A stretch of DNA of 64,000 bases, taken from NCBI GenBank assembly GCA_002305675.1, contig DBQA01000007.1, positions 174,653-238,652 on the forward strand, written 5' to 3'. The position numbers were made by a program, and so were the translations under genes. The notes under the pieces are model-generated. The model was not told the DNA's origin and searched no databases. It worked only from the letters and a program-made list of their open reading frames with translations. The stretch is from Patescibacteria group bacterium UBA1406. Its GTDB lineage: Bacteria; Patescibacteriota; Microgenomatia; UBA1406. This document shows positions 7,541-9,291 of this stretch, in pieces. Position 1 is the first letter of the stretch. The number at the start of each line of letters is the position of its first letter.

Positions 7541-8027
7541 AATTTTCAATTTAAAATTTTCAGTCAATTTTCAGGGGTACGGGGTTTGGATGACTGGCAG
7601 ATTTTGGTAAAAATCAGGGAAAGTTCATGAGCTTCCTGACGATGCCTTGTAAGAGACGGGTTGTTATCTATCTTCATTAAAAGGTCTATCCAGTAGGTCG
7701 TTTCCATAGCTTCCTTTTTGCATACCCCAACTTTATTCCGAAAATCGCTCCTTGAAACAGCGCCGTTTGCCTCCTGGTAGTTGGCTCCGATACTGGTACT
7801 CGAACGCAATAACTGCTCAACTATGTTTTTGTTGTAAAAAGTGATTTTAACTTTCTTAAGGGACTGGATTATATCCAAGGAGAATGATTTGGTTCTTTCG
7901 GCCAGGTCATAGCGCATAAACCTTATTATGAGATCACGGGAATTTTTTACAACGGTTTATACGCCTCTTTTTTGAAAATTGAACCCTGAGGCTTGATTGA
8001 GAATAGAAAATTTATCCTTGAAAATTA
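7541..8027. repeat. IVS-like cassette, full copy (carries the four-helix-bundle gene)
   Basis: Its ends are shared exactly with a second copy. aattttcaatttaaaattttcag occurs at 7541-7563 and 9091-9113. gaaaatttatccttgaaaatta occurs at 8006-8027 and 9270-9291. The internal block ggcagattttggtaaaaatc occurs at 7596-7615 and 9136-9155. The two ends are imperfect inverted repeats (taattttcaa...aaattttc). Confidence 0.7.
7564..7917 (-). CDS. four-helix-bundle protein (23S rRNA intervening-sequence protein / Avd-like family)
   Basis: 117 aa. The sequence YDLAERTKSFSLDIIQSLKKV...LLRSSTSIGANYQEANGAVSRSDFRNKVGVCKKEAMETTYWIDLL is the typical pattern of the family annotated as 23S rRNA IVS / four-helix-bundle protein. 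Confidence 0.8.
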   Translation of the reverse strand: MRYDLAERTKSFSLDIIQSLKKVKITFYNKNIVEQLLRSSTSIGANYQEANGAVSRSDFRNKVGVCKKEAMETTYWIDLLMKIDNNPSLTRHRQEAHELSLIFTKICQSSKPRTPEN

Positions 8028-8084
8028 TTACCCTCTCTATCGGCGTGGTATAATAGCACATACTATAAGGGTATTAATCACACT

Positions 8085-9089
8085 ATGAGCGTGAGCACCG
8101 AAACAGTGCAGCCTTTCAAATTCTTAAGGGTGACCGGTCATCCGGGCTGTACTTTTGGTTGCGAATACTGCAACCCGAAGCGGGAATACAATCCGGTCAT
8201 GATGCCCACCCGCGAGGTTCTGGACACTGTCCGGGCCGGCGTGGAACTCGGGATTGACACCGTCCATCTCACCGGGGGCGAGCCGTCCAAACGCAAAGAC
8301 ATCGTCAGGCTTGTGGCCGGTATAAAGGATGAAGGTGTACAGACCATTGAGATGACCACGAACGGTGTTCCCTTCTACCGCCTGGTCGAGGACCTCGCCG
8401 CCGCCGGCTTGAACGGCGTCAACATCAGTCTTGACACATTGGACAGGGAAAAGTTCCATCAAATTACCGGGGCCGACGCCCTGCCCTATGTGCTTGAGGC
8501 CATCGAAAAAAGCCGGCATCTCTTTGAGCGTCAGGTGGCCCTTAACATGGTTGTGATGAGAAAGAATCTGGCCGAGATGAGGGATATGGCCGAGTTCGCC
8601 CGCCAGACAGGGATCCTGGTCCGGTTCTGCGAGCTGACCCCGCACGGCCCCTACATGCAGGTTAACCCCCGGCTATTTCCGGAGCAGCATGTTCCCAAGG
8701 ACGAGATCATCTCGGTTTTGGAGGGGTTGGCCCCGATGGACGGCGCTGACAAGGGCAAGATAGACGGCCAGAACGCCCATTCGGAGTACCTGACCCTGGG
8801 CGGCGACTTTGCCAATATGACCGTCGGCATCATCGCCCCTTACTCGAACGGCTGGCCCTGTCCGGGCACGGACTGTGTCAGGCTGAGGATCGGGCCAACC
8901 AGCGCCAACTCCTGTGTCGTCTACCCCGAAAGGAATCTGATGGGACTGTCCTATGCCGGAAAAAAAGAGGTTTTGGAGGCTCTGATCGAGGAAAGAAGAC
9001 AGCAGATGGCCACTAACGGCTTCCCCGCCCACCATCAGCCGGCCTATCTCCTGTACCGTTTCGGCCTGCCCGAACCTGCCGTAGAATAG
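8085..9089 (+). CDS. radical SAM protein, MoaA-like (GTP 3',8-cyclase family)
   Basis: 334 aa. It has CTFGCEYC (CxxxCxxC), LTGGEPSKRKD, MTTNG and NISLDTLDREKF, plus a C-terminal Cys triad (CPGTDCVRLRIGPTSANSC) like the second MoaA cluster. Confidence 0.65.
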   Translation: MSVSTETVQPFKFLRVTGHPGCTFGCEYCNPKREYNPVMMPTREVLDTVRAGVELGIDTVHLTGGEPSKRKDIVRLVAGIKDEGVQTIEMTTNGVPFYRLVEDLAAAGLNGVNISLDTLDREKFHQITGADALPYVLEAIEKSRHLFERQVALNMVVMRKNLAEMRDMAEFARQTGILVRFCELTPHGPYMQVNPRLFPEQHVPKDEIISVLEGLAPMDGADKGKIDGQNAHSEYLTLGGDFANMTVGIIAPYSNGWPCPGTDCVRLRIGPTSANSCVVYPERNLMGLSYAGKKEVLEALIEERRQQMATNGFPAHHQPAYLLYRFGLPEPAVE

Positions 9090-9291
9090 TAATTTTCAAT
9101 TTAAAATTTTCAGTTGGTACGGGGCTTGGAGGACCGGCAGATTTTGGTAAAAATCGGGAAAGCTCATGTCTGTTTTGATTTGCTTGAGTGTTTTGATAAC
9201 GGCTTCAGAAAAAACTGACTATATACCTCTTTTTATTGAAAATTGAATCTTGAGGGTTGATTGAAAATTGAAAATTTATCCTTGAAAATTA
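9090..9291. repeat. IVS-like cassette, internally deleted copy (about 200 nt, no intact ORF)
   Basis: It has the same ends as 7541-8027. It keeps a frameshifted remnant of the 3' end of the four-helix-bundle gene (ggtacggggcttggaggaccggcagattttggtaaaaatcgggaaagctcatg) but lacks most of the CDS. Confidence 0.7.

Follow-up and report, generated by a model that had tools for sequence, protein, structure and literature searches.

Two copies of a small genetic module lie one gene apart in a 64-kb stretch of the genome of Patescibacteria group bacterium UBA1406 (contig DBQA01000007.1; this whole stretch is hereafter the window, and is also the scope of the counts of copies and motifs given below for this genome). 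The long copy, of 487 nucleotides (nt), carries a gene for a four-helix-bundle (4HB) protein of the PF05635/TIGR02436 family, whereas the short copy has kept both ends of the module and lost most of the gene. Based on the anatomy of the two copies and on a comparison with 4HB genes elsewhere, we consider it probable that the locus comprises a gene cassette of the intervening-sequence (IVS) type in two copies, one intact and the other decayed. We envisage this cassette as spanning about 0.45-0.5 kb, with a 4HB gene set between two inverted, heptamer-phased repeat arrays, and as representing the intergenic-spacer counterpart of the IVSs with an open reading frame (ORF) found in 23S and 16S ribosomal RNA (rRNA).

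The kinship of the two copies is most apparent at their ends. An exact left block (AATTTTCAATTTAAAATTTTCAG), a 23-mer whose exact match extends to 24 nt, occurs at 7541 and 9091, an exact right 22-mer (GAAAATTTATCCTTGAAAATTA) at 8006 and 9270, and an exact internal 20-mer (GGCAGATTTTGGTAAAAATC) at 7596 and 9136; these are the three blocks from which the original prediction had deduced a cassette and its internally deleted copy, and all three were recovered. Chance matches in shuffled sequences numbered 0.00 and 0.01 for the two end motifs. At a larger scale, 7566-7629 matches 9105-9168 with 89% identity over 65 columns, and 7958-8027 matches 9220-9291 with 88% identity over 72 columns, the terminal positions being identical between the copies at 46 out of 46 sites, whereas the interior that the copies share is about 86% identical (p ~0.001). 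A global alignment with the short copy read in gene orientation recovers the whole 5' arm and about 10 further nt, followed by about 40 nt that cannot be aligned and then by the last 89 nt of the long copy, which are retained save for one 1-nt and one 10-nt deletion. The short copy is the full cassette minus about 300 nt of promoter and coding sequence, with both arms kept, and the frameshifted stub of the gene's 3' end that it was predicted to retain after loss of most of the coding sequence is evident in the alignment (Table 1). Its right end supplies, as had been claimed, the stop codon of the gene 9289..10284 (TTA at 9289-9291). Two positional details of that earlier description require adjustment: the short segment, then placed at 9090-9291, keeps its right limit of 9291 but its shared left block begins at 9091, position 9090 being only the T of 'taattttcaa'; and of the copies said to lie immediately after stop codons, the short one does start 1 nt past the stop of the intervening radical SAM gene, whereas the long one starts 12 nt past that of 7058..7528.

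It had also been allowed that the shared blocks might prove to be a promoter or terminator motif common to many spacers of this genome. Within the window they are not: 8 of the 10 occurrences of the 9-mer TTGAAAATT/AATTTTCAA fall inside the two elements and the other two are isolated single words, while no third copy of either end is present in the 64 kb even with three mismatches allowed, blastn likewise finding none. The coding stub, the position between convergent stop codons and the restricted distribution of the motif in the window together argue that the short copy is a deleted cassette and not a shared promoter or terminator motif.

Read in phase, the left end of the cassette is AATTTTC AATTTAA AATTTTC and the right end is its degenerate complement. 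Tandem Repeats Finder reports period-7 arrays at 7537-7562 and 9260-9276 and essentially no others in the intergenic DNA of the window, the units here being degenerate as against the perfect ones of the cyanobacterial cassettes considered below. The arms of the short copy (9088-9115 and 9266-9293) show 82% complementarity over 28 nt, and in the long copy the left end finds its inverted partners at 7972-8026. The ends are hence the imperfect inverted repeats that they were originally described to be, and folding bore this out, with the RNA folds of both copies, on each strand, displaying an end-to-end closing stem in the minimum free energy (MFE) and centroid structures.

Table 1. Coordinates of the features of the two cassette copies and of the gene between them
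Feature	Position	Strand	Remarks
Long (intact) cassette	7541..8027	-	In gene orientation: 5' arm, promoter-like spacer, 4HB gene, 3' arm; limits are the limits of homology to the short copy
4HB gene, 117 aa, apparently intact	7564..7917	-	PF05635, 52.2 bits (cut-off 33.8); TIGR02436, 73.3 bits (cut-off 24)
Promoter-like sequence of the 4HB gene	7925..7961	-	TTGTAA-16-CATAAT (7952 to 7925) with TATAAACCGTTGTAA (7961 to 7947) before it; consensus scan
3' arm, long copy (plus-strand left end)	7541..7574		Heptamers AATTTTC AATTTAA AATTTTC onward; covers the TGA stop at 7564-7566
5' arm, long copy (plus-strand right end)	7958..8027		Degenerate heptamer array ending TTGAAAATTA; 88% identical to 9220-9291
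Short (ORF-deleted) cassette	9091..9291	-	Occupies the entire spacer in which the radical SAM gene and 9289..10284 converge, from stop codon to stop codon
Left arm of the short-copy closing stem	9088..9115		Pairs with 9266-9293; in MFE and centroid folds, both strands
Stub of the 4HB gene 3' end, FPIFTKICRSSKPRT	9116..9168	-	1-nt and 10-nt deletions, frameshifted; tblastn matches residues 102-114 at 92% identity
Short-copy core	9169..9219		Without credible alignment to the long copy; in place of ~300 nt of promoter and coding sequence
Right arm, short copy	9220..9293		TTGAAAATT three times; last TTA is the stop codon of 9289..10284
MoaA-like radical SAM gene	8085..9089	+	PF04055 matches; lies between the two direct-orientation copies; context, outside the cassette

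The product of the long copy is a regular member of its family. It displays all 18 invariant columns of a 38-sequence alignment, as it must by definition since it belongs to that alignment, and its AlphaFold2 model (pLDDT 95) comprises four helices. Foldseek aligns this model with 2RLD (TM 0.77-0.83) and 2GSC (TM ~0.8), both pentameric structures of the S23 family, and 2RLD is also matched at the sequence level (E = 2e-24). A relationship of the family to Avd, the accessory protein of diversity-generating retroelements (DGRs), had been put forward as well; it holds at the level of the four-helix-bundle fold, weakly (TM ~0.6, Foldseek E ~0.3 for 4DWL and the Avd chains of 8UB7), but has no counterpart at the sequence level. 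Solved Avd relatives resemble the S23-family structures in being pentameric, and they bind nucleic acid (4DWL, 8UB7). No reverse transcriptase family occurs among the Pfam matches of genes up to about 10 kb away in either direction, which argues that the locus is not a DGR, template and variable repeats not having been searched for. Upstream of the gene, the -10 hexamer of the promoter-like sequence ends 7 nt 5' of the ATG, and we suggest from this spacing that the mRNA may be leaderless. The 15-mer preceding that sequence (TATAAACCGTTGTAA) recurs at -44, the same distance, upstream of a 59%-identical homologue (L015), which is likewise divergent from its upstream neighbor.

We then examined the flanks of 4HB genes at large, using 80 metagenomic loci whose products are 42-57% identical homologues, together with several obtained by exact-protein look-ups; 73 genes had enough flanking sequence. 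For each of these the upstream 150 nt were compared by Smith-Waterman alignment with the reverse complement of the downstream 150 nt of the same gene. The median score against a gene's own downstream flank was 40, as against 21 for the downstream flanks of other loci (Wilcoxon p = 2e-11, 73 loci), and scores of at least 30 were attained by 58 of 73 4HB genes but by only 3 of 50 other genes from the same contigs (Mann-Whitney p = 5e-15), two of these three being additional 4HB genes. The best autocorrelation lag of the flanks was 7 in 50 of the 73 and 14 in a further 9. The arm sequences themselves are variable across the set (AATTTTTAATTTTT, AATTTCAAATTTC, GAAATTCGAAATTC and GTAAGTTGTAAG among them), each with its own matching partner. 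As the sequences change between cassettes while the complementarity stays, we infer that selection acts on the pairing of the arms rather than on their sequence. Two other measures were set aside: RNA duplexfold on the 150-nt flanks scored own pairs above cross pairs but against a high background, so that local alignment scores were used instead; and the scarcity of Shine-Dalgarno sequences (3 of 73 4HB genes against 17 of 120 control ORFs) was dropped as a special feature of these genes, both figures being low and the start calls crude.

The same architecture is found beyond metagenomic contigs. Heptamer-array flanks were seen in 10 of the 10 plasmid-borne 4HB genes of cultured bacteria that were inspected (L123-L132), from Nostoc, Dolichospermum, Pseudanabaena, Gloeocapsa, Chlorohelix, Treponema and Chondrinema, and are clearly inverted in most, some of the arms being perfect, as in (TTCAAAA)4/(TTTTGAA)4, (TAATTCG)4/(TTACGAA)4 and repeats of GTCGGAG facing repeats of CTCCGAC. 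These genes sit within operons, between cas2 and cas1, csx2 and cas1, a helicase and an N6-methylase, DUF1156 and Swt1-HEPN, or an RND adaptor and its permease; several of the host operons are defence operons. Across the loci the spacers, about 60-70 nt long, are taken up by the arms and stop just short of the following start codon, by a few bases, and 44 of 60 cassettes are co-directional with both neighbors, a count that is descriptive only, without a baseline for such gene-dense genomes, and is consistent with co-transcription. Complementary heptamer-array flanks are therefore a specific attribute of 4HB genes across many lineages. We found no paper describing 4HB genes outside rRNA as cassettes with heptamer arms in the searchable literature, older subscription literature lying outside that search.

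Decayed derivatives like the short copy recur in other contigs. In one of them (L032) a full cassette is preceded, one gene upstream and in direct orientation, by a ~99%-identical copy with a 204-nt deletion within the ORF and a heptamer array expanded by 50 nt, the outer tip of the 5' arm being precisely where homology begins. Another contig (L049) bears three cassettes in 2 kb; two of these, in direct orientation, have one gene between them and are 74% identical in the ORF and 85-93% in the arms. Arm-only elements of 90-176 nt whose arms match the type of the resident cassette are present in two more (L022 and L066), and 4HB ORFs with internal stops in yet another two (L052 and L026). In other genomes too, then, cassettes are duplicated into spacers close by and degenerate into hairpins without an ORF, and the pair in the window is one case of a recurring pattern of local duplication, ORF loss and arm retention.

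The nearest parallel to such a module is provided by the IVSs of rRNA genes. Where these carry an S23p ORF, their inverted ends form a stem that is cut by RNase III (PMC4990558). The Coxiella IVS combines an S23p ORF with tandem heptamers, at the first of which RNase III cuts to excise it, and displays strain-specific ORF deletions, the ORF decaying while the RNA element is kept (PMC4990558); 23S_rRNA_IVP ORFs are also known from insertions in the 16S and 23S rRNA of bacteria of the Candidate Phyla Radiation (CPR) (PMC11270868). The cassette of the window agrees with the IVSs of Leptospira, Coxiella burnetii and CPR bacteria in its protein family (S23p/23S_rRNA_IVP), in its size (487 nt, IVSs of ~430-760 nt having been reported; PMC4990558, PMC11270868), in the inverted termini closing a stem, in the tandem heptamers near the ORF, as in Coxiella, and in the decay of the ORF with retention of the RNA stem. 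The link to the IVS family, which the original prediction had drawn from the protein, is strengthened by the construction of the arms from heptamer arrays, a trait of the Coxiella IVS as well (PMC4990558), and by the presence of inverted heptamer arms family-wide. Unlike an IVS, however, the cassette stands in a spacer between protein-coding genes, antisense to both and with its own promoter-like sequence; as initially stated it is outside any rRNA, Rfam detecting none in the window and both copies lying between protein-coding genes. It would resemble an IVS in operation and lacks the sole defining feature of one, residence in an rRNA gene. RNase III excision, which is demonstrated for rRNA IVSs, can be only surmised for it.

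In light of these parallels we posit that transcription of either strand would allow the arms to close a long A-U stem around the gene, and that this stem would probably be cut by RNase III, as in the rRNA IVSs. Such processing would excise or insulate the insert, which might therefore be tolerated inside operons and rRNA alike. Selection would be for pairing of the arms and not for a sequence read by a protein. The 4HB gene of the window, antisense to its neighbors, could rely for its expression on the promoter-like sequence in front of it, its mRNA perhaps being leaderless, and the spread of such cassettes would occur mainly by local duplication or recombination. Several observations sit uneasily with this proposal. 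Should the gene indeed be transcribed from the predicted internal promoter, its own mRNA would lack the 5' arm, and stem formation would be confined to read-through or antisense transcripts. The closing stems are made of A-U pairs only, with modest whole-molecule folding z-scores (-1.3 to -1.7), and in some cassettes each spacer is itself palindromic, so that local hairpins compete with the long-range pairing. The long copy is antisense to both neighbors, an arrangement seen at none of 60 other loci; the flank test was run on crude ORF calls from contigs of mostly one ecological type; and only two copies are visible in 64 kb.

The principal competing explanation, which we regard as rather unlikely, is mobility at the DNA level in the manner of a miniature inverted-repeat transposable element (MITE), with the 22-28-nt ends serving as terminal inverted repeats for a transposase supplied in trans and the short copy being a transposed non-autonomous derivative. 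The perfect conservation of the termini over a diverged interior would be expected of such an element, as would the fact that homology stops at the arm tips both in the window and in the duplicated pair with the 204-nt ORF deletion, and the recurrence of arm-only elements of the same arm type within the same contigs. Many cassettes also have termini of the form TAATTT...AAATTA. TA abuts the short copy on both sides, as it would at a duplicated TA target, but CA adjoins the long copy on its left and TA on its right, and TA is uninformative in ends so rich in A and T. No target-site duplication is evident at the long copy, and no transposase is encoded by the cassette, whose full-length copy specifies only the 4HB protein, or by its neighborhood. 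Moreover, arms that vary widely and yet stay complementary fit a structural constraint better than a single transposase site.

Comparisons between genomes bear on the same question. Two strains were available, a Logan assembly identical to the window (SRR5321242) and one 99.56% identical to it over 11 kb (SRR8427164); both cassette copies are present in each and are identical between them, with no presence/absence difference. Relatives of the flanking genes yielded no unoccupied site to compare, the radical SAM orthologues being non-syntenic, the 331-aa neighbor having just two distant homologues, and the contig retrieved through the 156-aa neighbor belonging to the genome of the window itself. 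Recent mobility, which identical proteins in differing contexts would have betrayed, was not borne out by the two identical 4HB proteins followed, P0006 on 24 contigs and P0036 on 14, each of which has a single genomic context. A junction between a glycosyltransferase gene and DUF2304 (L103-L112, L010, L012) is occupied throughout by a 4HB cassette whose proteins are about 56-61% identical to that of the window, even as the downstream glycosyltransferase genes vary; the spacers there are internally palindromic, with local hairpins possible besides pairing across the gene. That this site is held by cassettes only about 60% identical implies that they have resided there for long. The exact left 23-mer has 7 single matches in species-representative genomes, a set that does not include the source genome. 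These are mostly CPR assemblies (L003-L009; four named as Gottesmanbacteria, Saccharibacteria, Zambryskiibacteriota and a Patescibacteria single-cell genome, and three binned as Gammaproteobacteria, Lysobacterales and KSB1), and the matches lie in A-T-rich spacers of AATTTTCAA/TTGAAAATT-type units, none with a 4HB gene and several ending directly before a start codon. Horizontal spread was rejected as the cause: the 23-mer amounts to three (AATTTTN)n array units, close variants of which flank many cassettes, and its sharing is therefore probably convergence. Viral contigs contain no exact match to either end.

The cassette is accordingly MITE-like in form: terminal inverted repeats are present in the short copy, but a parent transposase, many dispersed copies (only two occur in 64 kb) and insertion polymorphism are not in evidence, so that three of the four features that define a MITE are lacking or undecided. 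Of the original suggestion of a mobile cassette with a MITE-like derivative, the discrete cassette and its deleted derivative stand, whereas mobility in the MITE sense does not, there being no clear target duplication, no empty site and no strain polymorphism; transposition of the cassette is unproven. The Correia elements of Neisseria and the enterobacterial repetitive intergenic consensus (ERIC) sequences are MITE-type hairpin repeats that are co-transcribed with mRNAs, the Correia hairpin being an RNase III substrate; they have conserved ends, duplicate a TA target, occur dispersed in many copies and presumably depend on a transposase. The short copy is similar to them as an intergenic element of 100-200 nt with terminal inverted repeats abutting coding regions, but the ends vary between 4HB cassettes, no duplication was seen, and the parent encodes a four-helix-bundle protein and not a transposase.

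A more conservative possibility, to which we give little credence, is that an ordinary resident gene with its promoter and terminator was duplicated segmentally and one paralogue decayed, the A-T-rich repeats being terminators or insulators and nothing selfish. That there are only two copies, 1 kb apart and in direct orientation, is in keeping with this, and the short copy separates two converging genes, a place in which one would look for a bidirectional terminator; cassettes are also stable at orthologous sites in other lineages. Yet a scan finds no intrinsic-terminator-like site in either element, and the flanks accompany the 4HB gene across phyla, in rRNA genes and in operons unrelated to one another (PMC4990558; PMC11270868), as those of an ordinary terminator would not. 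The composition of the copies is likewise discordant, with a G+C content (GC) of ~0.40 for the long one and ~0.35 for the short one against ~0.57 for the flanks, and the closest 4HB homologues come from other phylum-level CPR groups. Among 5.8 billion sequences the nearest 4HB protein elsewhere is 61% identical, the named sources being mostly Patescibacteria (the CPR); the low identity of this best match indicates that the lineage of the window is very thinly sampled.

About equally improbable in our estimation, though compatible with our proposal as to what the cassette is, is that the arrangement is a scar of the acquisition of the radical SAM gene: an incoming cassette and gene would have recombined with a resident cassette in Campbell fashion to give cassette-gene-cassette, after which one copy decayed. 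The copies do bracket exactly one gene in direct orientation, a layout repeated in two of the contigs described above (L032 and L049). Orthologues of the radical SAM protein that are 62-67% identical (L017-L021) lie in unrelated, non-syntenic contexts, one of them adjoining relaxase, TraG-like and primase genes, and the protein may be a mobile stand-alone enzyme. Furthermore, the 1894 bp from 7506 to 9399, which include both copies and the radical SAM gene, are free of single-nucleotide polymorphisms between the two strains as against 48 in the rest of the 11 kb (comparison with L002; p ~0.01 assuming a uniform rate), a pattern that might be due to a recent sweep, to the segment having been transferred, or to chance. 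Conversely, the difference of about 14% in the shared interior means that the copies were not identical recently, the radical SAM gene has a host-like GC, no related genome lacking that gene was found, and the 331-aa neighbor on its far side is an orphan.

Finally, that the arrays are binding sites for a protein, either a 4HB pentamer or a single-strand binder of the Csp/S1 type, with complementarity a by-product of one unit used in both orientations, accords with the strict and widespread 7-nt period, with the binding of CspB to heptamer repeats at one protein per unit (reviewed in PMC4679880) and with the binding of nucleic acid by an Avd relative of the 4HB fold in the DGR ribonucleoprotein (8UB7), but is most doubtful as the unit is not conserved among cassettes whose proteins are 45-60% identical and ORF-less hairpins persist without the protein gene.

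Regarding the neighborhood, the radical SAM protein scores 162 bits against MoaA models, far under their 284-bit cut-off, and has its best named relative in Roizmanbacteria; an extended -10 (TGGTATAAT) is readable before its gene at 8046-8054, just beyond the cassette. The direct neighbors of the cassettes, 9289..10284 (331 aa) and 7058..7528, are orphans without a Pfam or NCBIfam match. Only two homologues of the former, 32-35% identical, were retrieved from the 5.8 billion sequences, and judged against these two distant relatives its C-terminus, which ends in the short copy, is of about native length. Farther along the window, a low-GC island at ~12800-21000 (0.27-0.40 against ~0.57) encodes a type I-like restriction-modification pair, composed of an HsdR-like helicase (18272-20833) and an N6-methylase fused to two specificity domains (15731-18268), along with an 8xMP membrane protein and a PD-(D/E)XK nuclease, and is probably an acquired defence island. 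A tRNA-Ile with the anticodon TAT (58608-58680) lies directly 3' of a tRNA-Arg(CCG) and just 5' of a glmS ribozyme (58743-58897; whole region 58532-58897); a tRNA-Ile with a UAU anticodon is unusual among bacteria. A hexamer array of about 11 CCCCAC units, followed by a second short array, is located at 62040-62147.

Two further classes of elements invite comparison with the cassettes. Integron cassettes with attC sites have a single small ORF and an imperfect inverted repeat in which structure is conserved rather than sequence. The 4HB cassettes similarly line up in consecutive spacers, as in the contig with three of them (L049), but they differ in having arms on both sides of the ORF in place of one downstream attC, in the make-up of these arms as heptamer arrays, and in having no integrase or attI nearby. 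The second class is that of intergenic heptamer repeats, which are transcribed and have no assigned function: GGGAATC in Xanthomonas, often as convergent inverted pairs, GGGGA(C/T)T and the short tandemly repeated repetitive (STRR) sequences in Nostoc and related cyanobacteria, and TAACTGA in Beggiatoaceae, cyanobacteria and Bacteroidetes (PMC4692102, PMC4679880). These are tandem 7-nt units of spacers, often near start codons and often in inverted pairs able to form stem-loops, and they occur in phyla rich in 4HB genes; the arrays in the window are distinct in specifically enclosing a 4HB gene or its remnant. A text search of the two papers describing the repeats finds no mention of S23, 'intervening sequence' or 'four helix', nor, in PMC4679880, of IVS. 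Taking these likenesses further, we tentatively suggest, as a possibility we hold well short of even confidence, that all PF05635 4HB genes belong to one class of hairpin-bounded cassette with inverted heptamer-array arms, of which rRNA IVSs would be the best-known insertion site and many intergenic heptamer repeats and inverted pairs, such as the Xanthomonas GGGAATC and cyanobacterial STRR sequences, the ORF-less relics, with the Avd-like protein acting on hairpin nucleic acid to propagate or protect the cassette. As members, this plausible but unproven class would take in the rRNA IVSs, the cassettes of CPR spacers, and those in the cas, restriction-modification, efflux and glycosyltransferase operons of cyanobacteria, Bacteroidota, Chloroflexota and spirochaetes.

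For thirty years the IVSs of rRNA and the S23p/four-helix-bundle proteins have been on record with neither function nor origin assigned to them, and the abundant intergenic heptamer repeats of several phyla are likewise without explanation. The locus described here and the comparative data connect IVSs, 4HB proteins and heptamer repeats, in that the gene travels with complementary heptamer arms and decays to arm-only hairpins. As 4HB genes are inserted inside cas, restriction-modification and efflux operons, annotation pipelines should class them as inserts and not as members of these operons. Culturable carriers with perfect (TTCAAAA)4/(TTTTGAA)4 arms exist in the form of Nostoc or Dolichospermum plasmids. 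The hypothesis of one cassette class that unites the IVSs with part of the heptamer-repeat load is plausible but unproven; if true, it would make the origin of IVSs testable, as one insertion site of a general cassette, and would furnish a concrete hypothesis for part of the heptamer repeats that bacterial genomes carry.

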